Positions 8,647 through 38,423 of a stretch of 59,254 nt of DNA are shown here, one piece after another. The position numbers and the translations under genes are program-made. The notes under the pieces are model-generated. The model ran no database searches, was not told the origin of the DNA, and worked only from the letters and a program-made list of their open reading frames with translations. Positions within the stretch are counted from its first letter, which is position 1. Each line of letters opens with the position of its first letter. Source of the DNA: Planctomycetota bacterium (GTDB lineage Bacteria > Planctomycetota > Planctomycetia > Pirellulales > PNKZ01); assembly GCA_017303535.1 (NCBI GenBank), contig JAFLCO010000002.1, forward strand, positions 1 through 59,254, read 5' to 3'.

Positions 8647-9096
8647 CTAAAACGCCTTCTTGCTGTCGACCAGCATCGTCACCGGGCCGTCGTTCACGAG
8701 TTCGACGTGCATGTGTTCGCGGAACTTGCCCGTGGCCGTGGGGATGCCCATCGCCGCGGCTTTGGCGACAAACGACTCGTAGAGCGGCACGGCCTTCTCC
8801 GGCGGCGCGGCGTCGGTAAAGCTCGGACGTTTCCCTTTGCGACAATCGCCCCACAGCGTGAACTGGCTGACGACCAACAGCGCCCCGCCGACGTCGGCCA
8901 ATGCAAGGTTCATCTTCCCCGCGTCGTCTTCAAAGATTCGCAGGCCGACGATTTTCTCGACCAAGTAATCGACGTCGGCCGGGGTGTCGTCGTGCCCTAC
9001 GCCGAGCAACACCAAAAGCCCACGGTCGATCGCGCCGACGACGATGCCGTCGACCGTGACGGAGGCCCGAGAAACGCGTTGGACGACGGCTCGCAT
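8647..9096 (-). CDS. dtd: D-aminoacyl-tRNA deacylase
   Basis: The N-terminus [17 protein letters not shown] is canonical, [17 protein letters not shown] is present, and the length is 149 aa. The upstream extension to 9321 in the ORF track has no support. An alternative ATG lies at 9111. Confidence 0.9.
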
Positions 9097-9243
9097 AAGG
9101 TTTGTGAGCATAACGAAAACGACGGGCCGACGACAACTGCCGGCCGCTTGTGAACCTGCGGCACTCCGACGATACTGGTACGCCGTCGCGTTTCCGACAT
9201 TCACGTGTCCGACGTTCCTCTCTACTACCGGCCGCTCGCCTGC

Positions 9244-10209: not shown

Positions 10210-10212
10210 AGG

Positions 10213-10785: not shown

Positions 10786-10847
10786 GTCAAACTCGGAACG
10801 ATTCGGGGGCGGCGAAACGTTCTAGTCTAACTTCGACGTGTTTCGTT

Positions 10848-10882
10848 CTAAAGCCCAGAGACCTTTGGTCCCTGGGCTTTAG
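10848..10882. repeat. 16-bp-stem hairpin overlapping the stop codon of 10879..11886
   Basis: CTAAAGCCCAGAGACC-TTT-GGTCCCTGGGCTTTAG, with one mismatch. The right arm contains the TAA stop (10879..10881, minus strand). Confidence 0.6.
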
Positions 10883-11886
10883 GGAAGCGCCGTCATCTGC
10901 TGTAGATAGAGTTCGGTCACATCCGTGTAGGGGCGTGAGCCGGGGGCGAACTGAAAGAGTCGCTCTTCCAACGGCACGTTGATCTGCACTTCGTAGAGTT
11001 CTAAAGCAAGCAGCAGTCCGTTGGGGTCGGCGTTGACCGGCGGCGCGGCGCCCGCGTCGGCGGTCGCGACTCCGTGCTCCGCCCCCTCGGGCAGGCGGCG
11101 AAATTCGATGCGATACGGAAACAAGTCGTCGGTGCCGAGGAACAGCACGACCTGATCGGGCACGTGCGGCCGCAACACCAGTCCGCCGACGGTGCGACCG
11201 GCGTCTTTCTTCTTCGGCGCGGAGGCCGCGAAGCCGCTCAATGCTTCCGCTTTCCAAGAACCGGTGACGACATGCACCGGCAGGTCACCAAGCTTGGAAG
11301 CGGCCACGCTATGAAACTGAAAGTCTTTGCGCAACGAAGCCAACAGATGGCCAAGCCCGCCGACGGCGAGCGCTTGTTGCATGCGGCCGATGTCGCCCGG
11401 CGCAGGTTGGGCCGCGGCCTGGCGTTCGTAAGCCGCGAGAATGCGGTCGACCTCGACGCGCTGGATGATCGGTTCATCTTCAAGCTGGCGCGAGATCCAG
11501 AGGTAGCGGTCGTCGCAAACCTGCAGCGAATGCACGATTTGCGAGCCGACTTTCATCCGAATCTCGTAGCGCAGCAGCCGCGAGCGGTTGGGGCCTTGGG
11601 CATAGTCGCCGGAGCCGATGAGTTCGCGCCCGTAGAGGTTGCCGCGCTGCCGCACCTTAGCGACCACGGAAAGGTGCTGCGCCAATTCGGACGTGGCCCG
11701 TTCGACGATCGCGCCCGGCGACATGGTCTTAGCCGCCGGTTCTTCAAACTGTGGGCGATCGACCTCGGCGTTTGCTGCCGGCGGCGCAAGCACTTGGGCA
11801 CGCGTCGCCGGCAAATCGAACACAGCAGCCGCCAAGAAACAGCTTGCCGCAACGGCCGCCGGCAAACTGTGACTCCTATTCTTCAT
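10879..11886 (-). CDS. Exported hypothetical protein (335 aa)
   Basis: The N-terminal signal-like sequence is MKNRSHSLPAAVAASCFLAAAVFDLPATRAQ. The gene is divergent from the 12195..15456 operon. A LolA-like fold is only a guess. Confidence 0.75.
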   Translation of the reverse strand: MKNRSHSLPAAVAASCFLAAAVFDLPATRAQVLAPPAANAEVDRPQFEEPAAKTMSPGAIVERATSELAQHLSVVAKVRQRGNLYGRELIGSGDYAQGPNRSRLLRYEIRMKVGSQIVHSLQVCDDRYLWISRQLEDEPIIQRVEVDRILAAYERQAAAQPAPGDIGRMQQALAVGGLGHLLASLRKDFQFHSVAASKLGDLPVHVVTGSWKAEALSGFAASAPKKKDAGRTVGGLVLRPHVPDQVVLFLGTDDLFPYRIEFRRLPEGAEHGVATADAGAAPPVNADPNGLLLALELYEVQINVPLEERLFQFAPGSRPYTDVTELYLQQMTALP

Positions 11887-12194
11887 GGTCGGGCTGGTTC
11901 GGTTGGTCGGGTTCTAACGGATTTACCAAAGATTCCCGTTGTGACAGGCCGACGTTACCTACACGAGGCTTCGAAGCGGAAGGCGTGCGCAGGGAAGCGC
12001 CCGCGCCGCGTTCGACACTTCGGCCCGAATCGATTTCGGGCGGCATTGTAGGACTGCGGGCAACCAAGGTCCACGCCGAAAACAGGCCCGAAAAAGCCGC
12101 GAAATCACCAGCTCCGCAGCCCGACGCTCACACAAGCCGCACTCCGGGACGATTGGCCCGCCGTCGGCACAGGGATGGATCCAAGGGGGAACCG

Positions 12195-13178
12195 ATGAAG
12201 TACCGATTTGCCTTTTTGTGCGCGCTGGCCGCGATCTGCGGTTGCCGCGTACCGTTCGTGTCGCACACGATGCCGCCGGCGACGATGATGCAACATCCGG
12301 GCCCCGGCGTCGACGGCCCCGGTCCGGGCGTGATGACCATCGGCGATCCGGCCGCGGCGATGCCGTTGTCGAATTCGCAAGTGGCCTTCATCGGCCCCGA
12401 AGGCGCCGCCGTCGCATGGAGCGTCGGCCAAGCGGGCATGTTCGACAGCGAACCGCTCGTCGCTCCGGCTCGCAGCAATTTTCCGCAAGGCGCGCTCTAT
12501 CGTCTGAAGCTCACCGACCTGCCGGGCCGCCCGGGCGTCGAGCTTTACCCGACGATCGAAATCGCTCCGGCCGTACACCGCACGGAAGCCTATCTGTCGC
12601 ATAACGCGATTCCGGTGCAGTTCACCGAAGAAGATCTCGACCAAGTGCTCTCGGGCAACTTCGTCACCAAGGTCATCTTCTTGCCGGATCCTGAGTTCCA
12701 AGAACTCGCGGTCGCCGGCGTGCAAGAACTCGTCAGCACACGGCTCGATCCGGGCCAAGACCCGATCGTCGAAGCCGATCGCCAAGGCGCGATCATGGCG
12801 ATCATCCGCATCGGTAACAAGGACCTGGAAGTGCCGGGCCTCGAAGGTGACGTCGGCGGCTTCGCCGAAGGAAGCGAACTCTACCAGGGCGTGACGCAAG
12901 CTCAGTACGGAATTCCGATCACCGGAACGCCGATCGGCTTGCCTGGTCCTCCGCACATTCCGCTCGGCGGACCGGCGGGCCTGCAAAAGCACGTGATTCG
13001 CAACCACACGTTCCAGCACTATCCGCAGCCGACGAAGAAGCAGAGCATCCACGTGAAGCAAACGCCGGGCATGAGCTATCCGAAGCCCGCCAACAAGGCC
13101 TTCGTCCACGAGCATGCGAGCGTCGGCCTTGGTGCCCGCGGTGCGGGAGCCGGAGCCGGTGCGGCTTACTGCCCGTAG
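12195..13178 (+). CDS. Exported (possibly lipo-) protein, paralogue A of a YPTIEI-motif family
   Basis: Start is the ATG at 12195 (MKYRFAFLCALAAICGC...). It shares conserved blocks with 13336..14142. The Pro/Gly-rich C-terminal part has no counterpart in the paralogue. Confidence 0.8.
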   Translation: MKYRFAFLCALAAICGCRVPFVSHTMPPATMMQHPGPGVDGPGPGVMTIGDPAAAMPLSNSQVAFIGPEGAAVAWSVGQAGMFDSEPLVAPARSNFPQGALYRLKLTDLPGRPGVELYPTIEIAPAVHRTEAYLSHNAIPVQFTEEDLDQVLSGNFVTKVIFLPDPEFQELAVAGVQELVSTRLDPGQDPIVEADRQGAIMAIIRIGNKDLEVPGLEGDVGGFAEGSELYQGVTQAQYGIPITGTPIGLPGPPHIPLGGPAGLQKHVIRNHTFQHYPQPTKKQSIHVKQTPGMSYPKPANKAFVHEHASVGLGARGAGAGAGAAYCP

Positions 13179-13335
13179 AGTTTCCACCGAGCAGCCCAAC
13201 TGACTCGCAGTCGCCGCCGCAGCCCGAATCGCTGCGGCGGCGACGTAGTCGGACCCCTTAACCGAGCATGGCTCGATAGCGGTCCGACGCCTCACTTCTC
13301 TTCGCCCCACAATCGTCAGCGGCGGTCGACACCCC

Positions 13336-17371: not shown

Positions 17372-18046
17372 TCAGGTGCCGACGCGTCGCGGGTCCGTCG
17401 GCATTTGCACGATCTCCCCTGCCCCGCCGACCACGAACACGCCGTCGCCCGCGCGTGGCCGAACCAGGGCCGTGCCGGTGAAGCGACCGAAAGCCGGCAG
17501 CACCGCGACTTCGCGGCCGAACCAGAAGCAGGCCGCTTTCATGCTGCCGCCCCCGGGCTCCAAAAGTTCGACGGCCGGATGGATATGGCCGGCGATCACA
17601 TAGCCGCTCGGGTCCGGCTCCGGATGATGGCGAAAGACCAGCGGCCCGATCTGCAGTCGCTCGCCGGCCGGCGCAATGCTCCAGATCGCCGGCAGTTGCC
17701 CGGCCTTCTTATCGTGATTGCCGGTGACGCAGAGCCAATCCAGCACACCGTGCCGGATGCGCCAGGCCGCGATTTGCGAGATCGTCTCCGGCGTCATGCC
17801 GGCCTTGTCGTGCACGAGGTCGCCGACGATCAAAAGTGTCGTCGCCTGCCATTGGTCCACGAGCGCGGTCAGCCGCTGCAAATCGGTTCGAGTCGTGCCG
17901 TGAGGAATCGGCACTCCGGCCTGGCGAAACGACGCCGCCTTGCCAAGATGCACGTCGGCGGCGATCAACTTACGGCGAGCAGGCCACCATAGAGCGCGCT
18001 CCGCCAGCGGAACAAGCGTTTCACCGGCCACTTCAAATTGCAGCAT
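17372..18046 (-). CDS. pdeM: Ligase-associated DNA damage response metallophosphoesterase
   Basis: Motifs ADVHLGK, GDLVHD, GNHD and GHIHP are present. It is the last gene of the exo-lig-lhr-pdeM cassette. Start is the ATG at 18046 (MLQFEV), overlapping the lhr 3' end. Confidence 0.85.
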   Translation of the reverse strand: MLQFEVAGETLVPLAERALWWPARRKLIAADVHLGKAASFRQAGVPIPHGTTRTDLQRLTALVDQWQATTLLIVGDLVHDKAGMTPETISQIAAWRIRHGVLDWLCVTGNHDKKAGQLPAIWSIAPAGERLQIGPLVFRHHPEPDPSGYVIAGHIHPAVELLEPGGGSMKAACFWFGREVAVLPAFGRFTGTALVRPRAGDGVFVVGGAGEIVQMPTDPRRVGT

Positions 18047-20708
18047 CCGAGCGCTCCGTCGCATTTGATGAAACTACTTCTCCCCTCTCCCCTTGCGGGA
18101 GAGGGGCCGGGGGTGAGGGGTCCGCGTTCTGCGACGTCTTGCCACGCCGCGTTTTCTTTTCATCGCGCTCGGCGGCCCGTTCGAGTTGCACGGCCATTCG
18201 CTCGACACGCTTCGTCCACTGCTCGCTCGACACCTGATTCTTCTGAATCCGCGCGGCCCACAAAGGAAACGCCAGCGGCGTCAATCGCGAGATTGGCTGC
18301 ACGACGATCTCGGCCGTCGTCGCGCGACGCAAGGCCGCGCTCATCCGCCGTGTTTCAAGTTGTTGCTCCAAAACTTCGCGCCGCGCTTGATCGACCAGCA
18401 GATTCTCCGGGTCGTACTCGCGGAAAACGTCGAAGATCAAACCGCTCGAGGCTTGCAGCTGCCGAGCGGCCGTCGGAGCGCCGGGATAGCCGGTGAAGAT
18501 CAAGCCGGCGACGCGGGCGATATCGCGAAATCGCCGCCGAGCCATCTCAGTGCCGTTGACGCAAGCCGCTAAGTCTTCAACCAACCCGTCGGTCGTCAGT
18601 AGCTCGCGCCACATTTCGGGCGACAAGTCAAATGGCTGGGGCGACAACAGCTCGAAGCCGTAATCGTTCGACGTGATCGTCAGCGATCGCGGCATCTTGA
18701 GCGACAACCGATGTGCGACGAGCGTCGCCAAGCCCTCGTTGACGAGCACTCCTTCAAACGGATAGACGAACGCTTGATAGCCGCGCTGCACGTGGGCCAT
18801 TTCGATCAGTAACTCACCGGACCGCGGCACGCGTGACCAATTCGCTTGAATCTCCAAGATGGCCCGGGCTCTCTGAGTTTCCGGCGTATCAAATCGGCCC
18901 GCCGCGACTTCGCCCAGTTTCGCACGGACGCCCGACGCCAACTCGGTCGACAGCGGCAGTCGGCCCCCTTCCCATCGCGGCACCGTGCCCGAGGGCTTCG
19001 TGGCTTTGCGGACGTAGGCTTTCAAATCGCGGAACCTTACGAACTCAAGCGTCTTACCGGCGAACAAGAATACGTCACCCGGCTTAAGTCTTGCGATGAA
19101 CGATTCTTCGATCGTGCCGAGCCGCGGGCCTTTGAGATACTGCACGGCCACGGCGGCGTCACTCGTGATCGTGCCGATCGTCATTCGGTGCAGACGGGCC
19201 GTTTGCGGCGATCGAATGACGTGCCGACCGCCATCTTGCACGAGCTTTGAATACATCGGATAAGCCCGTAGCGCCGGGCCGCCCCGTTCCACGAAGTCGA
19301 GCGTCCAGCGCCATTGCTCAGGCGTGAGATCACGGAAGGCGCGCGTCGTGCGAACTTCATGGTAGAGCGCATCCGCATCGACCCCTTCGCCCAGCGCCAT
19401 CGTCACGACGTGCTGAGCCAGCACATCGAGCGGGTTATCCAGAGGTTGCCGCCCTTCCAACCGTCGGGCCGCCGCCGCCTCGCGGGCCGCCGCATACTCG
19501 ACAAGTTCGAAAGCGTGCGTCGGCACGCAGAGAATCTTGCTCACCGCGCCGGGCCGATGTCCGCTCCGGCCGGCCCTTTGCAGCAGCCGCGCGATCCCCT
19601 TGGGGCTGCCGATCTGAATCACCTGATCGACGGGCGAGAAATCAACGCCCAGATCCAAGCTCGACGTGCAGACGACGCACTTTATCGTGCCGCCGCGCGT
19701 GCGACCTTCGACGTATTCGCGCAAGCCGCGATCGAGCGAACCGTGATGGAGCGCAATCTCTGCCGCCCACTTCGGTCGGGCATGCAGAATCTCGCGAAAC
19801 CAAATCTCGGCCTGACTCCGGGTGTTGGTAAATACGAGCGTGCTCTGCGCCTTATCAATCGCCTCGACCACTTGCGGGAGCATTCGCTTGCCGAGGTGGC
19901 CGGCCCACGGGAAGCGTTCCATCGTCGGCGGCAACAACGTTTCGACGGTCGTCGCCTTGGGCGCGGTGCCGTGAATCAACACGCCCGCACCCGACATATT
20001 TCCCAGCAACACGTCGCGAGCTTCTTCGAGATTGCCGAGCGTCGCCGAAAGACCCCACGTCCTTAAGTTCGGCACGTATTGTCGCAGCCGTGCCAGGCCG
20101 AGTTCCGTTTGCACGCCTCGCTTGTTGCCGATGAGTTCGTGCCATTCATCAACCACGACGCAGCGGAGCGATTGAAATCGCTCGCGGGCATCGCCGTAGG
20201 AAAGCAACAGTGACAAGCTCTCCGGCGTGGTGACCAGGGCCGTCGGCATCCGGGCCTTCTGCCGACGCCGCTCGGCCGCGGAAGCGTCGCCGGTGCGGAG
20301 GCCGACGGACCAGTTGAGCCCGAGTTCTTTGATGGGCCGCTCGAGATTGACGACGAGGTCATTCGCAAGGGCCCGCATCGGCGTGATCCAGAGCAAACGC
20401 AACGGATCAGCGACACGTTCATTCGATTTGCGCGAACGCCTCCCCTCTCCCCTTGCGGGAGAGGGGCCGGGGGTGAGGGGTTCCGCGTCGCCACGAACTT
20501 GTGCCTCACGTTCGCGGAGCCCCTCTTCCACTACACCGAGCCAAACGGAATATGATTTCCCCGTCCCGGTCGAAGCGTGCACCAATCCGCTACGGCCGGC
20601 TAAGTAAGCTCGCCAGGCGTCGCGTTGGAATTCAAACGCGTTCCACCCCTGGCTTGCGAACCAGCGGTCGATATGAAACTCGGCGTTGTCGGCCGTGCGA
20701 CGAATCAC
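18033..20708 (-). CDS. lhr: Ligase-associated Lhr-type DExH-box helicase
   Basis: Walker A is TGTGKS and the DExH motif is VVDEWHEL. Also present are SATLGN, helicase C motifs (VCTSSLDLGVDF, RAGRSGH) and an Lhr-like winged-helix/C-terminal region. The GTG start at 20708 overlaps the ligase stop. Confidence 0.9.
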   Translation of the reverse strand: MIRRTADNAEFHIDRWFASQGWNAFEFQRDAWRAYLAGRSGLVHASTGTGKSYSVWLGVVEEGLREREAQVRGDAEPLTPGPSPARGEGRRSRKSNERVADPLRLLWITPMRALANDLVVNLERPIKELGLNWSVGLRTGDASAAERRRQKARMPTALVTTPESLSLLLSYGDARERFQSLRCVVVDEWHELIGNKRGVQTELGLARLRQYVPNLRTWGLSATLGNLEEARDVLLGNMSGAGVLIHGTAPKATTVETLLPPTMERFPWAGHLGKRMLPQVVEAIDKAQSTLVFTNTRSQAEIWFREILHARPKWAAEIALHHGSLDRGLREYVEGRTRGGTIKCVVCTSSLDLGVDFSPVDQVIQIGSPKGIARLLQRAGRSGHRPGAVSKILCVPTHAFELVEYAAAREAAAARRLEGRQPLDNPLDVLAQHVVTMALGEGVDADALYHEVRTTRAFRDLTPEQWRWTLDFVERGGPALRAYPMYSKLVQDGGRHVIRSPQTARLHRMTIGTITSDAAVAVQYLKGPRLGTIEESFIARLKPGDVFLFAGKTLEFVRFRDLKAYVRKATKPSGTVPRWEGGRLPLSTELASGVRAKLGEVAAGRFDTPETQRARAILEIQANWSRVPRSGELLIEMAHVQRGYQAFVYPFEGVLVNEGLATLVAHRLSLKMPRSLTITSNDYGFELLSPQPFDLSPEMWRELLTTDGLVEDLAACVNGTEMARRRFRDIARVAGLIFTGYPGAPTAARQLQASSGLIFDVFREYDPENLLVDQARREVLEQQLETRRMSAALRRATTAEIVVQPISRLTPLAFPLWAARIQKNQVSSEQWTKRVERMAVQLERAAERDEKKTRRGKTSQNADPSPPAPLPQGERGEVVSSNATERSDAAI
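18080..18121. repeat. 42-nt palindromic element, copy A, inside the 3' tail of lhr
   Basis: CTCCCCTCTCCCCTTGCGGGAGAGGGGCCGGGGGTGAGGGGT is identical to 20440..20481. It forms a 10-bp stem CCCCTCTCCC/GGGAGAGGGG with a 5-nt loop. Confidence 0.9.
20440..20481. repeat. 42-nt palindromic element, copy B, inside the N-terminal helicase domain of lhr
   Basis: Identical 42-mer in the same orientation as copy A. With one indel, similarity continues into (T)CCGCGT. Confidence 0.9.
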
Positions 20709-22402
20709 GGTTGTCGCACCTCCGCGGTCGATGGGTCTTCCACGTCGTCGTCGAGATCAAATAGCGTCGACTGTCGCGACACGCGCGGGTGTAAATCCTC
20801 GCGCCCCATGCCCGCTAGTTGCACGAGCGTTTCCAGCGAATCGGCCTCGGCCGGCGGTTTGTCGTGACGCCAACGATGCATGCGAGGAAACCTCACGGCG
20901 ATGCCGGCCCGATGCCGCGAAGAAACTTGAATCCCTTCGAAGTGAAGTTCGAACACCAGCCGCGGTTCGACCTCGCGCACCGGGCCGAACTTGTCGATGG
21001 TGTGAGCCCGGATGAAAGCGTCGACTCGGCGAATCTCCTCGTCGGTCAACCCGCTGTAAGCTTTCGCAACCGGCACGAGGCGGCGCATGTCCCAGACGCC
21101 GAAGGTGTAGTCGGTGTAGAGGCCGGCCCGTTTGCCGTGGCCGGCCTGCGCGTACATCAGCACGGCATCGATCGAGTACGGCACCGCCTTCCACTTCCAC
21201 CACGGTCCGCGGCGGCGACCGACGCCGTACGGCGCGTCGAGCCGCTTGATCATCAGACCTTCGACCTGCTGGGCGCGGGCCCGCCCGTATTGACGTTCGA
21301 GTTCGTCCCAAGTTTGAAAATTGACGACAGGCGAGAGCTGCAAGCGAGGCTGCGAGACTTGACGGACGATTTGCTCCAGGCGTTCGCGGCGTTCGCTTAA
21401 CGGGCGTTCGCGAAAGTCAACGCCTTCGACTTCGAGCAGGTCATACGCGAGGAAGGCGACAGGCGCTTCTTTGAGAACTCGCGGCGTTATGCTCTTGCGG
21501 CCGATTCGCTTTTGTAGCGCGGCGAACGGCAGCGGACGGTCGTCGCGCCAGGCGAGGATCTCACCGTCGAGAACCGTACCGAGCGGCAAGGCGTCGAGCA
21601 GCGGATGTAGTTCGGGGAATCGCTCGGTGACGAGTTCTTCACCGCGCGACCAAAGCGCGGTGACCGAATTGCCGGAGGCGTCGGCTCGTCGCAAAGCTTG
21701 GCCGCGGATACCGTCCCACTTCCACTCGGCCTGCCACTCGTGCGGGTCGCCCAGGTCTTGCACCGGCTCATCAAGGGCATACGCCAAGAAGAACGGATAC
21801 GGCCGCGCCGGATCGTCGCCGAGATCGCCGGAGATAAACTTCTGGTACTGCTCCGGCGTCGGTTGCCAGTCGCCTGCCAGACGGTGGGCCATCAGCGGAG
21901 CGGAAACTTCCGCCGCCGCGGCCAGAGCGCGAACGACGAGCGTCTGAGCGACGCCGACGCGAAACTCTCCCGTAATCAGCTTGTGGTAGACCAAGCGTTC
22001 GTGATCGTCGAACAGCCGCCATGCTTCGCGCACCAGCCGACGTTGCACGGCCGGCTCAGCATCGACGAGCGGCAAAACCTGCTTCTCGACGACTTCGACA
22101 AGCGACTCGTCACGCGCCCCTTCCGGCGGCGGCAAGATCCAAGCCAGCGTTTCACCGAGATCACCGACGGCTTCGTAGCTACGTTCGACGAGCCAGAGCG
22201 GCAACGCGGCCGCTTCGGCGGCCCACTCGCGCAAAGCCCTAGTCTTGATAAGCCGCTTGAGCTTGCGACCGGTCAGAAAGTACAAGGCCCACGCGGCATC
22301 GGCGGCCGGCGCCGAGCGGAAGTAGTCGGTCAACAGCGACGTCTTCTCGCTGGTGCGGGTCGTACCGTCGAGCCGGCGAAAGAGTTCGGCGAATTGTTTC
22401 AC
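20705..22402 (-). CDS. ATP-dependent DNA ligase (ligase-associated damage-response type)
   Basis: The adenylation motif I is EWKWDGIRGQ. The N-terminal DNA-binding-like domain and an OB-fold C-terminus are present. The GTG start at 22402 overlaps the upstream stop (GTGA). Confidence 0.9.
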   Translation of the reverse strand: MKQFAELFRRLDGTTRTSEKTSLLTDYFRSAPAADAAWALYFLTGRKLKRLIKTRALREWAAEAAALPLWLVERSYEAVGDLGETLAWILPPPEGARDESLVEVVEKQVLPLVDAEPAVQRRLVREAWRLFDDHERLVYHKLITGEFRVGVAQTLVVRALAAAAEVSAPLMAHRLAGDWQPTPEQYQKFISGDLGDDPARPYPFFLAYALDEPVQDLGDPHEWQAEWKWDGIRGQALRRADASGNSVTALWSRGEELVTERFPELHPLLDALPLGTVLDGEILAWRDDRPLPFAALQKRIGRKSITPRVLKEAPVAFLAYDLLEVEGVDFRERPLSERRERLEQIVRQVSQPRLQLSPVVNFQTWDELERQYGRARAQQVEGLMIKRLDAPYGVGRRRGPWWKWKAVPYSIDAVLMYAQAGHGKRAGLYTDYTFGVWDMRRLVPVAKAYSGLTDEEIRRVDAFIRAHTIDKFGPVREVEPRLVFELHFEGIQVSSRHRAGIAVRFPRMHRWRHDKPPAEADSLETLVQLAGMGREDLHPRVSRQSTLFDLDDDVEDPSTAEVRQP

Positions 22403-23508
22403 GATGCCGCCTCCGCGCCGGCGGCGACGGCTTCCCGCGACGTCGTATCTTGAGCGGCGGCTTGTTGTTCGGCTGCGGCGTCTTCCGTTGTGGCCGCATC
22501 GGTCTCGGTCAGCGTTTCTTCGAGAGCTTCCCCTTTGAATCGCGTCTCAATCGGAATCGCGTACAGTTTCTTCTCTTCCGAGAGATAGCGGGCAAACGGC
22601 TCCGTGTAGCCGTGCGTGACCCACACTTCTTCGGCCCCGGTCGCCGCGATCGCCTCGCAAAGACCTGGCCAATCGGCGTGGTCGGAGAGTACGAAACCGC
22701 GATCGACACCCCGCCGACGCCGCGTGCCGCGCACGCGCATCCACCCGCTGCAGACGGCCGTCGACACGGGGCCGAACTTTCGCAACCACGGCCCGCCGAG
22801 AACCGACGGCGGTGCGACGACGAGCGCCTTGCCGCCGGCCGCGCGAACGCTCGTCGCCGAAGCATGGGCCGTCTCCGGCAGCGTGACGCCGGCCTCGCGA
22901 TAAATCGGCAGAAATCGTTGCAACGCGCCATGCACCAGCAACGGACCATGAAGTTGAAGTAGTTCGGCCAGCACACGTTGGGCTTTGCCCAGCGAGTACG
23001 CGCAGATCACGCTCGTGCGCCCTTCGGCGGCGTTGGCTTGCCACCAAGCGTCAACGTCGCGCATGACATCCGGCGTCGCTTGCCAGCGATAGATCGGCAG
23101 GGCGAACGTCGCTTCGGTTATGAAGTGTCGGCAGCGGACCGGTTCGAATGCCGCGCACGTTCGGTCGGGCTGAACTTTGTAATCGCCGCTCGCGACGCAG
23201 ACGTCGCCCTGGTATTCGATCCGCACTTGCGCCGAACCGAGCACATGGCCGGCCGGATAGAACGAAACCTTGACGCCGTTGACGACCACCGACTCGCCGT
23301 ACGGCAAGCCTTCGACATCTTGCGGGCCGACGCGGGCCGTGAGCACGGGGACGTTCGCCGCCGCCGTCAGATACTTCTTCGACCCCCAGCGCAGGTGATC
23401 GCTATGCGAGTGCGTGATGACGGCGCGGTCGACCGGCGACCAGGGATCGATGTAAAAATCCCCGGCTCGGCAATAGAGACCTCGTTCCGTGTTCTCCACG
23501 AGCGACAT
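22399..23508 (-). CDS. Ligase-associated DNA damage response exonuclease (metallo-beta-lactamase/beta-CASP-like)
   Basis: The MBL motif is ITHSHSDH. It is the first gene of the cassette. The C-terminus has an acidic/Ala-rich tail. Confidence 0.85.
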   Translation of the reverse strand: MSLVENTERGLYCRAGDFYIDPWSPVDRAVITHSHSDHLRWGSKKYLTAAANVPVLTARVGPQDVEGLPYGESVVVNGVKVSFYPAGHVLGSAQVRIEYQGDVCVASGDYKVQPDRTCAAFEPVRCRHFITEATFALPIYRWQATPDVMRDVDAWWQANAAEGRTSVICAYSLGKAQRVLAELLQLHGPLLVHGALQRFLPIYREAGVTLPETAHASATSVRAAGGKALVVAPPSVLGGPWLRKFGPVSTAVCSGWMRVRGTRRRRGVDRGFVLSDHADWPGLCEAIAATGAEEVWVTHGYTEPFARYLSEEKKLYAIPIETRFKGEALEETLTETDAATTEDAAAEQQAAAQDTTSREAVAAGAEAAS

Positions 23509-27617: not shown

Positions 27618-28277
27618 TTACGCGTCGCGCTTCAGTTCCAACGTCGCCCACAAGCTAGGGTCTTCGTGGTACGGAAACTCCGGGCCGCAGCTAAAGGTCT
27701 GCGTGCCGATCTCGCGGTCGATCACGGCGTAGGTGAACCCGAGGCGCGGGTTTTCGACCGGGTCCCAGCCGGTCAGCGCCGCCGGCGTCACGAGACAATC
27801 GAGCAGGTAACCGTCCGGCCGTTTCTCGCGGCGGAACTTCAGCAAGTTCGACCGCACGGGCTTGGGGTTTTCGCGAGCCCGCGAGATGAAGAGTTGCTCG
27901 CCGTACGGTTCGTCGAGATTGCGCCCGGAGCCGGACGGCATAAAGATGAACTGGTGACAGAACCGACTCGCGCGATGGATGTTGTGCGTGTCGCGGGTAT
28001 CGATCCAGACGCGCAGGCCGTCGCTTTCGTCGGGCCGGCTGTCGCGGCACCAGGGCAACTGCTTCTTGCCGCCGACCAACACGCTGAACGCGACCCCTTC
28101 CTCGCTCCACGCCGTCCGCACTTCGGCGTACGCGGGCCCGCCTTCCAGATCGGCCAGCCGCGGGAGCTTGCAATCGTCGGGTAATGCGAGGCCGGAGTCT
28201 TTCCACAGCGGCTTGCGATACCGGCAATCGAAGCGATAGCGGAAGAGGAAACGGGCCGGAAGAAGAGGGGTCGACAT
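27618..28277 (-). CDS. Hypothetical protein, CBM9/DOMON-like beta-sandwich (guess)
   Basis: The ATG at 28277 lies 3 nt after the uvrA stop on the same strand. The patterns EVRTAWSEEGVAFSV, DGLRVWIDTRD, GFTYAVIDRE and PSLWATLEL resemble the CBM9-like family. Confidence 0.75.
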   Translation of the reverse strand: MSTPLLPARFLFRYRFDCRYRKPLWKDSGLALPDDCKLPRLADLEGGPAYAEVRTAWSEEGVAFSVLVGGKKQLPWCRDSRPDESDGLRVWIDTRDTHNIHRASRFCHQFIFMPSGSGRNLDEPYGEQLFISRARENPKPVRSNLLKFRREKRPDGYLLDCLVTPAALTGWDPVENPRLGFTYAVIDREIGTQTFSCGPEFPYHEDPSLWATLELKRDA

Positions 28278-28280
28278 GGC

Positions 28281-31200
28281 TTACTTCTCTGTTACCGCGT
28301 CCGCGTGTTCGTTGAGGAAGTCGTTCAGGGCTTCATCGGTCAATTGTTCGACGCTGTTGAACTGCAGCCGAACGACGTCTCGATCGGGCCTGTCTTTATC
28401 GAGCGACGGGGTTACGCCGAGCGTCGTCACGCGGCCGAGCGCGAACTTGTTCTTCGGGCCGTTGAGGTGTAGTTCCACGGCGTGCGGCTTCTTGGTGAAC
28501 ACCGTCGCCCACGGCTCGCTGCGACCTTTCAAGCAGTAGTGAATCAACTGCTGGTTGTTCCAGAGAAACTGCCCTTCGGCCGTATCGCTCAATAGCTCGC
28601 AGAGTTCTTCGAGCACTTCACTGTCCCAGGAAACCTTCTTACCCGGCGGGAAGCCTTTGCGGGCGAAGTGCCATTTTTGGCCGAGCACCTTCCACGGCAT
28701 GATGTTCTCTGGATTGATCGCGGCCTTGTCGGCAAACTTCTGAAAACCGCGAACGGAATCTTCGACGAACTTCCAGAAAGCCGGCGTATCGATTTCGTCC
28801 CAAGCGTGCACTTGCAGCTGCACTTCTTGCCACGGTCCGCGGAGGTTCTTGCATTTCACGCGCGGCTCGGTGCCGTAGACCGGCAGGTCGGGCATTTCGT
28901 TGAGCGGCTTCAGGTTCAACTGATGCACGATCTCGTCCCGCTTGAACGTGCTCTTGGCCGTGCGGAACTTGAGCTTGAGCAGCCATTCTTCGCCGGTCGA
29001 GGCGTGGAAGAACCAGCCGTCGCTTTTCTTTTCGCCGGTGATTTCGACGATCGTGCGGCTGTTGAAGTTTGTCGGCGCGAACTCACCCAGCTCTTGGATT
29101 TTGTCGATCACAGTCGCCAGGATGCGGCCGTCCCAACGGCACGGCTTGCCGTTGCGCGCGACGCGATCGGTGACGTGCCACCGCCGGCCGTCGACCTGCC
29201 ACGGCATCTGCGCCTCTTCGCCGACGGCGTCGAGATCGACGTCGTCCTCGCGCGGCTTCTCGGCCGCCGTCGGATCGAACGGCTTTCGCTCTTCGTGCGG
29301 CCCTGCGGCGAGAATCGGTTCCAGCATCTCGCCGGTGTAACTGCGGAGCAATTGCGGCGAGTCCTTTTCCGTCGCCTTAACGGCGGCCTTACGGCCCCCG
29401 CTCGCCTTCTGCTTACCGCCGACTGCCCCCTGCGCACTTTGATATTGCTTCGCGTGCTCCACCAATTGTTCCGGCGTGCCGGCGGCGACGACGTACCCGC
29501 CTCCTTCGCCCGCCTCGGGTCCCATGTCGATCAGCCAGTCGGCCGTTTTAATGACGTCGAGGTTGTGCTCGATGACGACGACGCTGTTGCCGAGATCCAC
29601 CAAGCGGTGCAGCACTTCGAGAAGTTTGGCCAGGTCGTCGAAATGCAAGCCGGTCGTCGGTTCGTCGAGCAGGTACAGCGTGCGACCAGTGTCGGGCCGA
29701 GCCAATTCGGCGGCCAGCTTCACGCGCTGAGCCTCACCGCCCGAAAGCGTCGGCGCCGGTTGGCCGAGCGTCACGTAATCGAGGCCGACGTCGCAGAGCG
29801 TCTGCAGAATCTTGCGGATCTGCGGGATGTTCTGGAAGACCTCGAGCGCCTTGCCGACAGGCATGTCGAGCACGTCGGCGATCGAGCAGCCGCGGAACTG
29901 CACGGCCAGCGTCTCGGGGTTATAGCGCTTGCCGCGGCATTCGTCGCACTCGACCCAAACGTCGGGCAGGAAGTGCATTTCGATCCGTAGCTGACCGTTC
30001 CCTTCGCACTTCTCGCAGCGACCGCCGGGCACGTTGAAGCTGAACCGCCGCGGCGTATAACCGCGCAGTTTCGATTCCGGCAGGTTCGCGAAGAGCGTCC
30101 GCACCTGATCGAACACGCCGGTGTACGTCGCCGGGTTCGACGTCGGCGTTTGGCCGAGCGGCAACTGATCGACGCGGATGACTTTGTTGATCTGGTCGAC
30201 GCCGCGGAGCGCATCGTGCTTGCCGGGGAAGGTACGCGCCCGGTGCAACGTGCGAGCCAGGCTGTTGTAGAGGACGTCTTCCACGAGCGAACTCTTGCCC
30301 GAACCGCTGACGCCGGTGACGACGGTGAACGTGCCGAGCGGAATCTGCACGTTCTGATGCCGCAAGTTGTTATGCGAAGCCCCGCGCACTTCGAGAATTG
30401 CGCCAGGGAACGTTACTCTCGGTTCTTCAACGGCAGTTTTCGTCGCGACGGCCTTATCCGCAACCTTCTTCTTCGCCTTCGAAGCGGCAACAGAAGTCTT
30501 CGAAGAAGCGGCCTTCTTCAATTCCCTATTCCCCACTCCCCCTTCCCCATTCGAACCAACGCACACGCGCCGATTTGTCGGCACCGCGATCCCCTTGGTA
30601 CCCGCGAGGTACGGCCCGGTGACCGACCGCTTCTGCTTGCCGACCTCTTCCGGCGTACCGCGCGCCACGACTTCGCCGCCGTGCACGCCCGCCTTCGGTC
30701 CAAAATCGAGCAGTTGATCGGCCCCGGCGATCACGTCTTTATCGTGCTCGACCATGAGCAGCGTGTTGCCGAGGTCGCGCAGCTTGAACAGCGCGTTGAG
30801 CAGCCGCAAATTATCGCGCGGGTGCAGACCGATCGTCGGTTCGTCGAGCACGTAGAGCACGCCCGTCAGACCGCTGCCGACTTGGCTCGCCAGTCGAATC
30901 CGCTGCGACTCGCCGCCGCTCAAAGTCGGCGCGCTGCGACCAAGCGTCAGATATTCCAGGCCGACGTCGACCAAAAACCGCAGCCGATTGTGAATCTCGC
31001 GCCACAATTCGCCGGCGATCTTCCGATCGCTACCGGTGAGCTTCAGGTCTTCGACCCACTGCAAGAGCGGCCCCAGCGGCGTGCGGCAGATTTCGTCGAT
31101 CGTTCGGTCGCGGAACCGCACGGCCGCCGCATCGTCGCGCAATCGGGCCCCGCCGCAAATCGAGCATTCGACCTCGTCGACCAAGTGATCGAGCTTGCCG

Positions 31201-34200
31201 CGCAACGCCGGCGACAAGCGGGCCGCTTCTTCCAGCGCAGGATAAAGACCTTTGTATTGGAAGCGAAACGCCGGAATGTTGTCGGTCGCCGCGACCTCCA
31301 CCCAATCTTCGCCACGACCATGAAAGATCGCTCGCCGCGCCTTCGCACCCAGTTGTTCAAACGGTACGTCGGTCGGCACGCCGAGATGCACGCCCAAGGC
31401 CTGCAACATCGGTTTGAAGAGCGGATGCTTGGCGTCGGGCCAAAGAGCGACCGCCCCTTGCGCGAGCGTGAGCTTCGGGTCGTTGAGCAGCGCCGCGGGG
31501 TTCGCGCCGGTTTGAATGCCCAGGCCCTCGCAGCTGCCGCACCAGCCCAAGGCGCTGTTGAACGAGAAGTTGTGCGGCGACAGCGGTTCAAAACTTCGTC
31601 CGCACTTATTGCACGACATGTGGCGACTGTGCACTTCGACGCGCCACTTCTCTTCCGGCATGTTGTCGTCGACGTAGGCCGCGTGAATCACGCCGCGGCC
31701 GAGATCGAGGGCGTTTTCGATGCTGTCCGCGATGCGCGACCGAGCGCCGCTGCGAACGACCGAACGATCGACGACGACCTCGACCACGTGCTTGCGGCGG
31801 CGATCGATCGTCGGCGGCTCGTCGACCGAGTACGTCTTGCCATCGACCCGGATGCGCTGATACCCGCGGGCCCGCATGTCTTCGAAGAGGGCTTCGTACT
31901 TCTCGCCGACCTGCACGTCTTGCGGCGCCATGAGGTAGAGCTTCGTCCCCTCCGGCTCTTCCATGATCTTGTCGACGATCTGGTCGACCGTTTGCGTGCC
32001 GATCGGAATATCGCAGGCCGGGCAGTAAGCCTTGCCGAGCCGTGCAAACAAGATGCGGAGATAATCGTAAATTTCCGTCACGGTGCCGACGGTACTGCGC
32101 GGCGTGTGGCCGAGATGTTTTTGCTCGATGGCGATCGCCGGCGAGAGCCCTTCGATGTGCTCGAGTTGCGGCTTCTGCATCTGGCCGACGAACTGCCGCG
32201 CGTAACTCGACAAGCTTTCGACGTACCGGCGTTGCCCTTCGGCGTAGACCGTATCCATCGCCAGCGAACTCTTGCCGGAGCCGCTGGGGCCGCAGCAAAC
32301 CGTGATCATGTCTCGTGGGATTTCGACGTCGACCGACTTTAGATTGTGCTGCCGTGCGCCTTGCACCTTGATCGAACGAGCTTCCTCGACGCGTGGCCGC
32401 TGCGGCCCCTTGGCCTTGGCCAGCGCCTGCTTATGACCTTCGCCGTAGAGGAACTTCTTCAAAGCCTGACCGGTGTGCGACTCTTTCACCGCGGCGACTT
32501 CCTCCGGCGTCCCTTGCGCGACGATCTGCCCGCCGCCGGCGCCGCCGTCGGGCCCGAGGTCGATGATCCAGTCGGCCGTTTTGATGACGTCGAGGTTGTG
32601 CTCGACGACCAGCACCGTGTTGCCGGCGTCGACGAAATCGTGCAGCACCTTGAGCAGCAAGCTAATGTCGGCGAAGTGCAGGCCGGTCGTCGGTTCGTCG
32701 AGCAAGTAAAGCGTCTTGCCGGTGCTTTTCTTTACAAGTTCGCGCGCGAGCTTCACGCGCTGCGCTTCGCCGCCGCTCAAGGTCGGCGACGGCTGACCGA
32801 GCTTCAAATAGTCGAGCCCGACGTCGTGCAGCGTTTGCAGCTTGTGCCGCACCGCCGGGATGTTTTCGAAATGCTCCAGCGCCTGCTGGATATCCATCTC
32901 CAACACTTCGGCGATGTTCTTACCCTTGAAGCGAATCTGCAGCGTCTCACGATTGAAGCGATGACCGTCGCACACCGGGCACTTCACCCACACGTCGGCC
33001 AAGAAATCCATCTCGAGCCGCGTACTGCCGTTCCCTTCGCAAGCTTCGCAGCGCCCCCCTTCGACGTTGAAGCTGAAGCGCCCTTCCTGATAGCCGCGCG
33101 CCTTCGCTTCCGGCAGCTGCGTGTAGAGCTTGCGAATGTCGTCGAACACCTTGATGTAGGTCGAGGGGTTCGAGCGCGGCGTGCGACCGATCGGCGACTG
33201 ATCGATCGAAATCAGCTTATCGAGATGGTTGAGCCCTTCGATCTTTTCGAACGCGCCCGGGTTGCCGAGGCCGCCGTTCAGATCGCGGTTGAGGGCTTCG
33301 ACGAGAATGTCGTTGACGAGCGAACTCTTGCCGGAGCCCGACGCCCCGGTGATGCAAACGAACATCCCCAGCGGCAATTCGACGTCGATATTTTTCAGGT
33401 TGTTCGCGGCCGCGCCAATGATCTTGAGCGCGTTCTCTTTGCGCCGGCGGCGGGTCTTGGGAACTTCGATCTTGCGCTCGCCCGAGAGAAACTGGCCGGT
33501 CAGGCTCCGCTTCTCTTTGCATACCTTTTCATAATCGCCGGCGACGACGACTTCGCCGCCGCGCACGCCCGGGCCGGGGCCGAAATCGATCAAGTAATCC
33601 GAAGCCCTCATCGTGTCTTCATCGTGCTCGACGACGACGACCGTGTTGCCCAAGTCGCGCAGCCGTTCGAGCGTGCCGAGCAGCCGATCGTTGTCTCGCG
33701 GGTGCAGACCGATCGAAGGTTCGTCGAGAATGTAAAGCACGCCGACGAGGCCGCAGCCGATTTGGCCGGCCAGCCGAATGCGCTGCGACTCGCCGCCGCT
33801 CAACGTCGGCGCCGTACGGTCGAGCGTCAGGTATTCCAGGCCGACGTTCGTGAGAAACCCAAGCCGGCCGCGGATCTCCTTGAGCACTTCGCCGGCGATC
33901 GCTTGGCGGACGGCGTCGAGATCAAGCTCGCGGAAGAAATCGACGCAGTCGGAAACGCTCAGTGCGCAGATTTCCGGCAGGCCGAGGGCCGGCTTCTTGG
34001 CAAACGTCTCATGCTTCGTCGTCAGCGTTACGGCCCGAGCTTGCGGATTGAGCCGAGCGCCATGGCACGCCGTGCAGCCTTGCGTGCGCATGTACTTTTC
34101 GAGAGCGCGCCGCTGCATGCCGCTTTGCGACTGTTTGTACTTCGACGTCAGCTCGGGAATGATCCCTTCGTACTTGCCGCCGTACTTGTGCCCCGACGGG

Positions 34201-35483
34201 CCTTGCCGCCAAGTGTAAGTAATGTGCAAGTCGCCGGTGCCGAAGAGCAGCTTGTTTTGCAAGTCGGGCGACAACTCTTCCCAGGCCGTTTCGAGCAGCG
34301 TGCCTTCTTCGAGCTTTTCCAGTCGCTCAAGCGTGTCGGCGACGCCTTGAAAGATATGACGGCGCCAGCGTCCCATGTCGGCCCACGGTCCGATCGTTTC
34401 GATCGCCCCTTGCTTGAAGCTCTTGGCCTTGTTCGGGACCATCAAGTCGACGTCGAAGCCGAATACCTCGCCGAGCCCGTCGCACTCGGGGCACATTCCT
34501 TGCGGGCTGTTAAAGCTGAAGAGCTGGGGCGTCGGCGGCTCGAAGCTCAGGCCGCAGGGCGTACAAGCATAGTGGGCCGAGAGATGAATGTCGTTAGGAT
34601 TGCGACCCGTGCGCGCGGCCCCTTTGGCTTTGCGCTTCGGAGCTTCTTCCTCGGCGACGACATCGCTCTCGTCGTCATCATCGTCGTTGTCTTGAGCCTC
34701 CTCACCGTCGGCCATTTCCAACAGCGGCGCATAACCGGCCGGGCGCTTGGCGTCTTTCGCCGCGGCCGTTTCCAGGGCGACGACGATGTTTCCCTTGCCG
34801 ATCTTCAAGGCCAGATCGACGGCTTCCGCCAACCGAGCCCGCAGGCCCGGGCCGGCGGTGAGCCGGTCGACCACGACTTCGATGTTGTGCCGCATCTGCC
34901 GGTCGAGCGACGGCGGCGAACTCAGCGAAATCACCTCTCCGTCGACCCGGGCCCGCACGAAACCCTGCTTGAGCAGGTCTTCGAACAAGTCGCGATGTTC
35001 GCCCTTTTGCGCGCGGATGATCGGCGCGAGGAGCGAGAACTTCACGCCGCTTTCGAGCACGCCGATCCGGTCGATGATTTGTTCGCGCGTTTGCGCAGTG
35101 ATCGGCTTGCCGCACTGCGGACAATGCCCTTGGCCGGTCCGTGCGAAGAGCACGCGGAGATAATCGTAAATCTCCGTGATCGTGCCGACCGTGCTCCGCG
35201 GGTTCTGGCCGCTGGTCTTTTGCGAAATCGAAATCGACGGGCTGAGGCCCGAGATCAGATCGACGTCGGGCTTGGGCATCTGCCCCAAAAACTGCCGGGC
35301 GAAGCTCGAAAGGCTCTCGACGTAGCGTCGTTGCCCTTCGGCATAAAGCGTATCGAACGCCAGCGAGCTCTTGCCGCTGCCGCTGACGCCCGTGAGACAG
35401 ATAAGTTTATTGCGCGGGAGCGTAAGGGAGACGTCGCGCAGGTTATGCTCGCGTGCCCCTTTGATGACGATATCGGCAGCCAC
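28281..35483 (-). CDS. uvrA: Tandem-duplicated excinuclease ABC subunit A (UvrA-UvrA fusion plus ~310-aa C-terminal extension), 2400 aa
   Basis: Four Walker A motifs are present: GVSGSGKSS at aa 32, GASGSGKSS at aa 713, GPSGSGKSS at aa 1065 and GVSGSGKSS at aa 1724. Four ABC signatures are present: LSGGESQR twice and LSGGEAQR twice. Each unit starts with the canonical (I/V)KGAR(E/Q)HNLK/R and holds Zn-module Cys pairs. The two units join through the linker [27 protein letters not shown]. Confidence 0.95.
30521..30557. repeat. GGGGAGTGGGGA-family repeat embedded in-frame in the uvrA unit-2 linker
   Basis: ATTCCCTATTCCCCACTCCCCCTTCCCCATTCGAACC on the plus strand. On the coding strand it encodes ...[12 protein letters not shown].... 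It resembles 43241..43277, ATTCCCCACTCAACACTCCCCACTCCCCACTTCCCCC. Confidence 0.55.
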
Positions 35484-36738: not shown

Positions 36739-37800
36739 ATGAGGTTTGCCATGCGTTACGCATCCATACTTGCGACACTCTTCTGCGCCCTGGTTTACGG
36801 ATCGCCTGCAAGTTTCGCGCAGCAGCCTACTCAACCGTCGACGGCCTCGTCACCTTTTGACGTCATCTGCGGAGTCGGGCAGACGAAGCCGGCACGAATT
36901 CTGTTCCTCGGCGATAGTATTACTCACGCCGGAAAGTACGTAGCTTACGTCGAAACGCTCGCGCGGCTTGAATTTCGCGACGCCGTGCGCGGCATCGAGT
37001 TCATCAACTGCGGACTTTCCAGCGAGACCGTCTCCGGGCTCTCCGAAGAAGGCCACGCCGGCGGAAAGTTTCCGCGGCCGACGGTTCACGAACGTTTGGA
37101 CCGTGTGCTGGCCGAGGTGAAGCCGGAAGTCGTCGTCGCCTGCTACGGCATGAATTGCGGCATCTACAAGCCGCTCGCCGAAGAGCGCTTTGCCAAGTAT
37201 CGCGAGGGGATCGAGTCGCTCCGCAAGAAATGTTTCGCGGCCGGTGCGAAGCAGGTCGTGCATCTCACTCCGCCGGTTTTCGACGCGCTACCGATTAAAG
37301 ACCGGGTCGCTTCGGCAGGCAGCAACGACTACTCAAAGCCTTACGCAGGCTACGACGAAGTTCTCGAAGCCTACGGAAATTGGCTCCTTTCCAAGCGGGC
37401 CGATGGCTGGGAAGTGGTCGACGTCCACGGCCCGATGAAGGCGCTTATCCGGGAGCGCCGCCAGACCGAACCGGAGTTCACCGTCGCGAAAGACGGCGTC
37501 CATCCGAACAATCTCGGTCATTGGCTAATCGCCAAGGCGATCATGAACGAAGGCAAAAAAGTCGACGATTTCGCGAAGTATGCCGACGGCGAAGCGGCCG
37601 TCGCCGCGTTTCCGCACGGAGCGGAAGTCCTCAAACTCGTCGAACAGCGTCTCGCCCTGATGCACGACGCCTACCTTACGGCGACGAAACACAAACGCCC
37701 CGGGGTCAAAGAAGGGCTCCCGCTCCCGGAAGCGAAGCAGAAGTCGATGGAGATCGAGGCGAAGATTGTGGAGTTGCTAAAAACCCCCGGGAAAAGCTAA
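36739..37800 (+). CDS. Exported SGNH/GDSL-family hydrolase
   Basis: A signal peptide is present. Block I is ILFLGDSITHAG and block V is DGVHPNNLGHWLIA. Confidence 0.85.
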   Translation: MRFAMRYASILATLFCALVYGSPASFAQQPTQPSTASSPFDVICGVGQTKPARILFLGDSITHAGKYVAYVETLARLEFRDAVRGIEFINCGLSSETVSGLSEEGHAGGKFPRPTVHERLDRVLAEVKPEVVVACYGMNCGIYKPLAEERFAKYREGIESLRKKCFAAGAKQVVHLTPPVFDALPIKDRVASAGSNDYSKPYAGYDEVLEAYGNWLLSKRADGWEVVDVHGPMKALIRERRQTEPEFTVAKDGVHPNNLGHWLIAKAIMNEGKKVDDFAKYADGEAAVAAFPHGAEVLKLVEQRLALMHDAYLTATKHKRPGVKEGLPLPEAKQKSMEIEAKIVELLKTPGKS

Positions 37801-38423
37801 TCGTCGACTTTGCGCCTCGCTTGCGATTTCGCGGAAGCGCCGCTGCGTAGTCCCGGCATCCATCCATCGTACGCTTTGACAAACTCCCACGACTGCGCCG
37901 GCCGGCGCGCCTTAATCGGATTGTCTTCGACATACTTTATACAACGTCGGATATCCTCGGCCGTTTCGAGATACACCACCCAACCCTTGCCGCCCCAGAT
38001 CGGGTGATTCGCCGAAAATAAACCGGCGGAACGTAGAGCGTCGGCCGATGTCTCTTGAAACCGCTCGATCATCCGATCGCCGTTATCGCGATGCCTTCGG
38101 ATCACGAGATGCACATGATCCGGCATAATTGCGCAAGCGTAGCACGTGTAGCTTGCTTCGGTGATTGTTGCGTGGAATGACTTTGCGACGACGGCAATCT
38201 CCTCAACGCACAGCATCCGCAGTTCATGCTGTAATTGACCCGCGGCCAAATTGCGAAACGCCCCGATATCTTTGCCGGCCGGCTGAATGCGCTTTCGTCC
38301 GTAGTGAATCTCGCCGAGTGCTGCGATCTTCGGATTGCGAATCGATTTCGACATGCTTCCCCGCGGATCGTTGGGAAGCCAGTAGCCGTAGATCGTCCAG
38401 ATAAGGTGATGAGCGACGATCAT
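37797..38423 (-). CDS. IS200/IS605-type Y1 (HUH) transposase-like protein, RAYT-like, with no tnpB partner
   Basis: The HUH motif is MPDHVHLVIRR. The Tyr motif is CIKYVEDNPIKA, which follows the Y-x3-NP pattern of REP-associated tyrosine transposases. The gene stands alone, with a convergent 4-nt overlap with the SGNH gene. Confidence 0.75.
   Translation of the reverse strand: MIVAHHLIWTIYGYWLPNDPRGSMSKSIRNPKIAALGEIHYGRKRIQPAGKDIGAFRNLAAGQLQHELRMLCVEEIAVVAKSFHATITEASYTCYACAIMPDHVHLVIRRHRDNGDRMIERFQETSADALRSAGLFSANHPIWGGKGWVVYLETAEDIRRCIKYVEDNPIKARRPAQSWEFVKAYDGWMPGLRSGASAKSQARRKVDD

Follow-up and report, generated by a model that had tools for sequence, protein, structure and literature searches.

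Does the gene at positions 28281..35483 on the reverse strand of contig JAFLCO010000002.1, of which we analysed a stretch of 59,254 nucleotides (assembly GCA_017303535.1, a Planctomycetota bacterium of the Pirellulales; hereafter "the window"), really encode two complete copies of UvrA in one polypeptide chain, and if so, how might such a protein serve in nucleotide excision repair (NER)? The original prediction, made from the DNA letters without database searches, had described one open reading frame (ORF) with two full UvrA units, and our analysis bears this out: the gene encodes a single chain in which two complete units of class-I UvrA follow each other in tandem, with an extra domain at the C-terminus. 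It is read as a single uninterrupted ORF of 2400 codons from a GTG start, the position of which coincides with the start of the relatives' proteins, and its GC content at codon positions 1/2/3 (0.65/0.42/0.80) is the coding signature of a 62% GC window. The parts that carry the two units are the following:

28281..35483, reverse strand: whole ORF, tandem UvrA-UvrA plus C-terminal domain; GTG start at 35483, stop codon 28281-28283.
32439..35483, reverse strand: UvrA unit 1, residues 1-1015; Walker A motifs at residues 32 and 713, signatures at residues 561 and 902, six CxxC pairs.
34776..35105, reverse strand: UvrB-binding domain of unit 1, residues ~127-236; matched by PDB chain 4dfc_B and by Pfam UvrA_inter.
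32376..32438, reverse strand: inter-unit linker, residues ~1016-1036; without stop or frameshift in the window.
29298..32375, reverse strand: UvrA unit 2, residues 1037 to ~2062; Walker A motifs at residues 1065 and 1724, signatures at residues 1521 and 1913, six CxxC pairs.
31671..31994, reverse strand: UvrB-binding domain of unit 2, residues 1164-1271; best Pfam UvrA_inter stretch, covering profile positions 1-108 of 109.

All four Walker A motifs and all four LSGGE(S/A)QR signatures that had been predicted were located in the translation, and they are accompanied by four Walker B motifs and by ATPase H-loops (E-H-[DN]) at residues 619, 961, 1579 and 1972. The zinc-module cysteines are likewise kept in each unit, as had been proposed; the twelve CxxC pairs, six per unit, provide 24 zinc cysteines and thereby three zinc modules per unit. 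A scan of the 2400-residue protein with profile hidden Markov models from Pfam detected the insertion domain UvrA_DNA-bind twice and gave two stretches of UvrA_inter (PF17760, the UvrB-binding domain; 233.7 bits together), one for each of the segments in which UvrB binding had been suspected, and no half with defective ATPase motifs was found. Residues 127-236 of unit 1 match a UvrB-binding domain of known structure (chain 4dfc_B, "UvrABC system protein A") and this domain can be aligned without gaps to those of Escherichia coli and Bacillus, while the tail of unit 2, SYTGE..L.P.L, resembles the canonical UvrA C-terminus. Scored against NF001503 (TIGR00630), the UvrA equivalog model of NCBI with a curated cut-off of 1147 bits, the whole protein reached 2652.7 bits, and each unit exceeded the cut-off alone: unit 1 (residues 1-1030) with 1376.8 bits, residues 3-1012 being aligned to profile positions 4-941 of 943, and unit 2 (residues 1031-2016) with 1282.7 bits. 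The best solved matches are chains of class-I UvrA (9gxk, 3zqj and 2r6f, at ~1150 bits).

Conservation was read from an alignment of 121 full-length relatives. Here, the key catalytic residues of the four sets of Walker A, Walker B, signature and H-loop motifs are conserved to 99-100%, as are all 24 zinc cysteines; the few motif positions that vary are non-catalytic, and a degenerate site occurs in neither unit. The mean identity to the window protein is 0.74 for unit 1 and 0.73 for unit 2, i.e., the two are equally conserved. Judged from this alignment, both ATP-binding cassette (ABC) ATPase modules, the zinc modules, and the UvrB-binding and insertion domains of each unit are under strong purifying selection. 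The earlier proposal that the halves of such a protein would be free to diverge consequently holds in part: the halves do differ from each other (44-50% identity), but no motif has been lost in either.

A fusion of this kind could also be mimicked by an assembly chimera, by a collapsed tandem duplication or by adjacent genes joined through a sequencing error at the junction, and broken ORFs at 11 of 44 related loci might be taken as a hint in this direction. The two halves, which align end to end, share however only 44% protein identity across ~1000 residues and ~71% DNA identity that is confined to conserved patches, and this divergence excludes a collapsed or spuriously duplicated assembly repeat, a case which the original prediction had itself raised. 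Moreover, when 5.8 billion proteins were searched, the same unbroken architecture was recovered in at least 120 protein clusters, which derive from independent projects (66-99% identity to the query, 2305-2470 residues, query coverage of 100% in 118 and 88% in two clusters). When species-genome loci with complete upstream DNA were considered (n = 44), 33 were spanned by one ORF, no shorter than 2343 codons and with four or five matches to the Walker A motif, and the intact loci include the cultured Aeoliella straminimaris and a metagenome-assembled genome (MAG) labelled Blastopirellula marina. The 11 remaining loci, at which two or three pieces take the place of the single uvrA ORF (L001, L005, L008, L031, L034, L041, L050, L053, L056, L079 and L081 in our numbering), stem mostly from long-read (nanopore-type) MAGs, and in the example examined, L001, the pieces (543+1251+617 residues) add up to the same protein. 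These breaks are probably frameshift errors, which produce spurious "hypothetical protein" entries resembling stand-alone C-terminal domains. Given the divergence of the halves and the recurrence in independent assemblies, an artefact was rejected and appears vanishingly improbable.

Is the architecture then new, as the original prediction had implied? This part of it fails, because the tandem is the standard UvrA of a whole clade and has been published. The named relatives among the clusters are entries called "excinuclease ABC subunit UvrA" from Pirellulales, Planctomycetia or Thermoguttaceae, carrying the plain UvrA name at NCBI. All named relatives are Planctomycetota, and most of them belong to the Pirellulales. 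In a scan of one genome per GTDB species, the C-terminal domain of the window protein was found in at least 535 genomes, and 80 of the 80 loci listed are labelled Planctomycetota, including cultured Aeoliella straminimaris and MAGs labelled Blastopirellula marina and Anatilimnocola. In a study on the subcellular proteome of Tuwongella immobilis (Front Microbiol 2021; PMC8567305, Fig. 13), one sentence and a Pfam-based figure describe two uvrA genes as fused in Planctomycetes and treat the product, about twice the length of the E. coli protein, as the UvrA of this group; the fused UvrA was detected there together with UvrB, UvrC and UvrD in the fraction soluble in sodium dodecyl sulfate (SDS) rather than in the soluble fraction. 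The original prediction was correct in stating that duplicated UvrAs are known. In its clade, this is simply the ordinary housekeeping gene for UvrA; the fusion had been recorded before and is not a discovery. In a literature search that covered few subscription journals, and which is therefore weak evidence, no publication was found that addresses the C-terminal domain, the inserts with biased charge, the 219-residue neighbour or the split form described below, and the phrase "class III UvrA" gave no match; these four features (the domain, the charge-conserved disordered inserts, the adjacent gene and the lineage with a split unit 1) are apparently undescribed. The novelty that is left lies in the C-terminal domain, which has no family assignment, and in its possible partner.

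The original prediction had further suggested a phylogeny of the two halves against class-I and class-II UvrAs. We calculated a small, distance-based tree (neighbour-joining, 931 trimmed columns, 100 bootstraps) from the units of six tandem proteins, the class-I UvrAs of E. coli, Bacillus thuringiensis and Nonomuraea, two class-II UvrAs and the long UvrA of Ralstonia. The halves fall into separate groups, each of which is closer to class I than to class II. All unit-2 sequences are united in a clade with 99% bootstrap, and the grouping of the unit-1 sequences is weakly supported (55%). Unit 1 clusters with the canonical class-I UvrAs, without unit 2, at 100% bootstrap, and unit 2 is the sister of this cluster (75%). 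Class I and both planctomycete units make up a group to which neither the class-II nor the Ralstonia units belong. On the tree columns, identity to E. coli UvrA amounts to 55% for unit 1 and 50% for unit 2, the two units share 50% with each other, and identities to the UvrAs of E. coli, Bacillus and Nonomuraea range from 50 to 55%. The unit-wise clades together with these identities (55% to E. coli versus 50% between the units) place the fusion before the radiation of the sampled Pirellulales and mark unit 2 as the more derived half. Whether an old internal duplication was followed by accelerated evolution of unit 2, or two genes that were already distinct became fused, is not decided by this tree.

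Apart from the conserved cores, the protein contains charged segments, two of which had been predicted: the acidic insert in unit 1 (residues ~262-281) and the Lys/Ala-rich insert in unit 2 (residues ~1656-1682) were both found in the translation. Altogether, the conserved cores are interrupted by four segments that are poorly conserved and vary in length; their lengths and net charges in the 121 relatives are given here:

34584..34772, reverse strand: insert after the UvrB-binding domain of unit 1, residues ~238-300; 9-102 residues long, net negative in 74%.
Residues 1012-1038, reverse strand: inter-unit linker region; 23-52 residues long, net positive in 95%.
30399..30572, reverse strand: basic insert in the linker between nucleotide-binding domains I and II (NBD-I/NBD-II) of unit 2, residues ~1638-1695; 15-77 residues long, net positive in 100%.
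Residues 2008-2045, reverse strand: basic stretch before the C-terminal domain; 9-74 residues long, net positive in 91%.

The acidic insert of unit 1 shows a sequence identity of only ~0.10 among the relatives. Conservation of charge without conservation of sequence suggests that these segments are functional disordered regions, and for the basic ones additional contacts to DNA are plausible.

How could a chain with two UvrA units work? Canonical UvrA acts as a dimer (PMC3167621), and we consider it likely that the window protein forms an intramolecular pseudo-dimer, which would behave like UvrA2 and dock two UvrB molecules in ordinary NER. In this scenario, units 1 and 2 of one chain would pack like the two protomers of the canonical dimer, so that one chain would equal one UvrA dimer with four ATPase sites and two UvrB docking sites. 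The chain would scan DNA, recruit two UvrB and pass the lesion on as in other bacteria, and the basic inter-unit linker and the always-basic insert of unit 2 would probably add non-specific DNA contacts. Several points weigh against this picture. Unit 2 is further from canonical UvrA than unit 1 (50% versus 55% identity to E. coli), which would allow for some specialisation; neither uvrB nor uvrC nor a second uvrA lies within the 59-kb window; and comparisons with Pfam, NCBIfam, PDB, Foldseek and hhalign detected no functionally characterised relative of the C-terminal domain.

Nothing in the sequence forces the units of one chain to pair with each other, and they could instead pair between chains as a domain-swapped dimer or a higher oligomer, resulting in a particle with four UvrA units and up to four UvrB sites. 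Two lineages (L093 and L083) encode the halves of unit 1 separately, showing that such modules are able to assemble non-covalently. The linker is however short, present in all relatives and conserved in length (23-52 residues), giving a high effective concentration that favours local pairing, and since two canonical protomers already make up the working dimer (PMC3167621), we regard pairing between chains as unlikely. A different option would be sub-functionalisation, with unit 1 serving as the canonical NER sensor and unit 2, together with the C-terminal domain, having taken over another task similar to class-II UvrAs outside of UvrBC-dependent repair; conceivably, the entire protein could even be a paralogue next to an ordinary UvrA. 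Such a division would be in line with the tree, in which canonical class-I UvrAs are joined by unit 1 (100% bootstrap) but not by unit 2, with the position of the basic insert in unit 2 and of the C-terminal domain behind it, and with the fact that the search for a further uvrA covered the 59-kb window. Yet unit 2 retains a UvrB-binding domain over its full length (profile positions 1-108 of 109) as well as all ATPase and zinc motifs and passes the NF001503 cut-off alone, while class-II UvrAs lack the UvrB-binding domain (PMC3167621), as can also be seen in our alignment, and the Tuwongella study, in its sentence and figure on the fused protein, treats it as the UvrA of Planctomycetes (PMC8567305). 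Sub-functionalisation thus seems quite improbable to us, and the intramolecular pseudo-dimer is the reading that we prefer.

The C-terminal domain (~2090-2400, ~310 residues) consists of two repeats:

28698..29216, reverse strand: repeat A, residues 2090-2262; modelled with AlphaFold2.
28284..28697, reverse strand: repeat B, residues 2263-2400; homologous to repeat A (hhalign).

With a mean identity of 0.64, the domain is conserved on par with the UvrA accessory domains and includes many invariant Trp, His and Gly residues; repeat A alone features 49 invariant columns in 14 sequences. Comparison by hhalign shows the repeats to be homologous (probability 94%, E 1e-7), and both start with the motif PW..G..WH. 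AlphaFold modelled the two repeats with a predicted local distance difference test score (pLDDT) of 80, and repeat A alone with a pLDDT of 77 and a predicted TM-score (pTM) of 0.79, the predicted order per repeat being helix, three to four strands, helix, two strands and a long helix (alpha/beta). Neither the whole domain nor either repeat matched any Pfam family even at E<=10, and the domain had no match in NCBIfam or among PDB sequences. Foldseek lists mostly type III secretion chaperones, YbjN proteins and DR_1245 of Deinococcus, none of them as a significant match: for the whole domain, the chaperone-like matches had E >= 0.018 and TM-scores (target-length normalised) of 0.3-0.53, and E <= 0.001 was reached only by the top match, an unrelated large glutamate dehydrogenase, while the best E for a single repeat was 0.03 (TM 0.3-0.4). 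The profile comparison by hhalign of our alignment A2 with E. coli YbjN was negative (probability 0.08%), and for this reason the repeats were not placed in the YbjN fold family; after these results a YbjN or type III secretion chaperone fold was left unassigned.

A profile search for the domain, run exhaustively over 1.84 billion representatives, yielded 645 proteins, and every one that was inspected represents a fragment or form of the long UvrA. Two short "hypothetical" matches, which looked like free-standing copies, turned out to be a frameshift-split piece (L001) and a protein cut at a contig end (L002). So far, the domain is found on tandem UvrA only and in Planctomycetota only. Most likely, it serves as an accessory module for protein-protein or nucleic-acid interaction. 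A more specific idea, which we put forward tentatively and consider rather doubtful, is that the two-repeat domain is a planctomycete-specific module on the NER sensor that tethers UvrA, perhaps together with the 219-residue protein encoded next to it, to a structure or partner; candidates might be the nucleoid in its condensed form, an internal membrane or a further repair factor. Such tethering would fit the SDS-soluble fractionation of UvrABCD reported for Tuwongella in the passage cited above (PMC8567305). If true, it would mean a new domain family and a new regulatory layer on bacterial NER. In any case, ~310 conserved residues in at least 535 species genomes without a family assignment constitute an annotation gap.

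Immediately downstream of uvrA lies the candidate partner gene:

27618..28277, reverse strand: 219-residue gene, candidate operon partner; starts 4 bp past the uvrA stop.

The window copy of its product gave no Pfam or NCBIfam match and has no obvious signal peptide; some relatives match PF06452 (CBM9-like) or are named "sugar-binding protein". A homologue is found directly downstream and on the same strand in 38-47 of the 75 loci with room for it, and also at the deeply divergent split locus L093 (36% identity), and the gene may be an operon partner of uvrA. Another neighbour, located 5 kb from uvrA, is a complete ligase-associated DNA damage response operon (17372-23508, reverse strand) encoding the phosphoesterase PdeM (TIGR04123), a DEXH helicase (TIGR04121, 1073 bits), an ATP-dependent DNA ligase and an exonuclease (TIGR04122). 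We considered a repair gene cluster comprising this operon and uvrA and rejected it, as the operon occurs together with uvrA only in the closest relatives (L004 and L005); the other neighbours of uvrA are likewise common to the closest relatives only. Elsewhere, the window contains a 208-residue ORF (37797-38423, reverse strand) with a weak match to IS200-like Y1 transposases (PF01797, E 3e-4, below cut-off), and typical planctomycete content, i.e., a 1225-residue Ser/Thr protein kinase fused to WD40 beta-propellers (2759-6436, reverse strand) and a SNF2-family helicase running off the window end (57111-59249, reverse strand).

The uvrA gene itself occurs in variant forms. In the two metagenomic lineages mentioned above, unit 1 is split cleanly at the NBD-I/NBD-II linker: L093 features a 711-residue gene (1636-3771) for NBD-I, ending in ...IEVPKKRRPVS, followed by three unrelated genes and a 1818-residue gene (6001-11457) that encodes the rest of unit 1 (NBD-II), all of unit 2 and the C-terminal domain, and L083 is split similarly, with genes at 5465-7423 and 8001-13304. 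The complete genome of Planctomyces sp. SH-PL14 (CP011270.1, L084 8001-11291) encodes a 1096-residue "UvrA", which extends from the second zinc module of unit 2 through the C-terminal domain; no UvrA coding sequence is located upstream, where trpA and trpB are found instead, and this copy represents either a truncated paralogue or a rearrangement remnant.

The roles of the proximal and distal ATPase sites and the asymmetry of the UvrA dimer are still debated (e.g., PMC6486640; PMC12796330). The two "protomers" of the planctomycete protein are distinct in sequence, and therefore each ATPase site and each UvrB dock could be mutated independently. A natural asymmetric UvrA dimer of this kind, together with its natural split variant, offers a ready-made system for dissecting dimer asymmetry, and it is mainly as such a natural tool that we see the interest of the protein.

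Among known systems, the closest is the fused UvrA of Planctomycetes described for Tuwongella (PMC8567305), which shares the two fused uvrA genes in one ORF, the length of about twice that of E. coli UvrA and the planctomycete origin; the C-terminal domain, which Pfam does not detect, is not mentioned in the sentence and figure concerned. The named relatives of the window protein belong to the same circle (Pirellulales, Thermoguttaceae, Aeoliella, Blastopirellula). Compared with canonical class-I UvrA (E. coli; Geobacillus, 2r6f; Mycobacterium tuberculosis, 3zqj), each half has the same set of domains and motifs, whereas the canonical protein is a homodimer of ~940-residue chains and the window protein a single chain of 2400 residues, to which three charge-biased disordered inserts or linkers and the C-terminal domain of ~310 residues are added.

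Two further long UvrAs invite comparison. Chlamydiae belong to the same Planctomycetes-Verrucomicrobia-Chlamydiae (PVC) superphylum. The Chlamydia-type long UvrA (NF001885, PRK00635; profile length 1809) is also about twice the canonical length, consistent with a tandem. Membership in this family was rejected: the window protein scored 1352.6 bits against a cut-off of 3054 (halves 696.6 and 650.9), and both halves align best to the first half of the profile, and on these grounds a shared fusion event is not supported. The long UvrA of Ralstonia solanacearum (QKZ30465.1, 1945 residues), which is encoded on the megaplasmid CP056084.1 (locus L092, 1-5838) and annotated plainly as UvrA by NCBI, is likewise a tandem with four Walker A motifs and four signatures. 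Its unit 1, however, lacks the first zinc module and the UvrB-binding segment, leaving a single UvrA_inter in unit 2, whereas both are present in both units of the window protein; the C-terminal domain is also absent from the Ralstonia protein. With class-II UvrAs (Deinococcus UvrA2, Ecm16, DrrC), finally, the window protein has the ABC and zinc core in common; these references are gapped at the UvrB-binding domain in our alignment, while both halves of the planctomycete tandem carry this domain and cluster away from class II.

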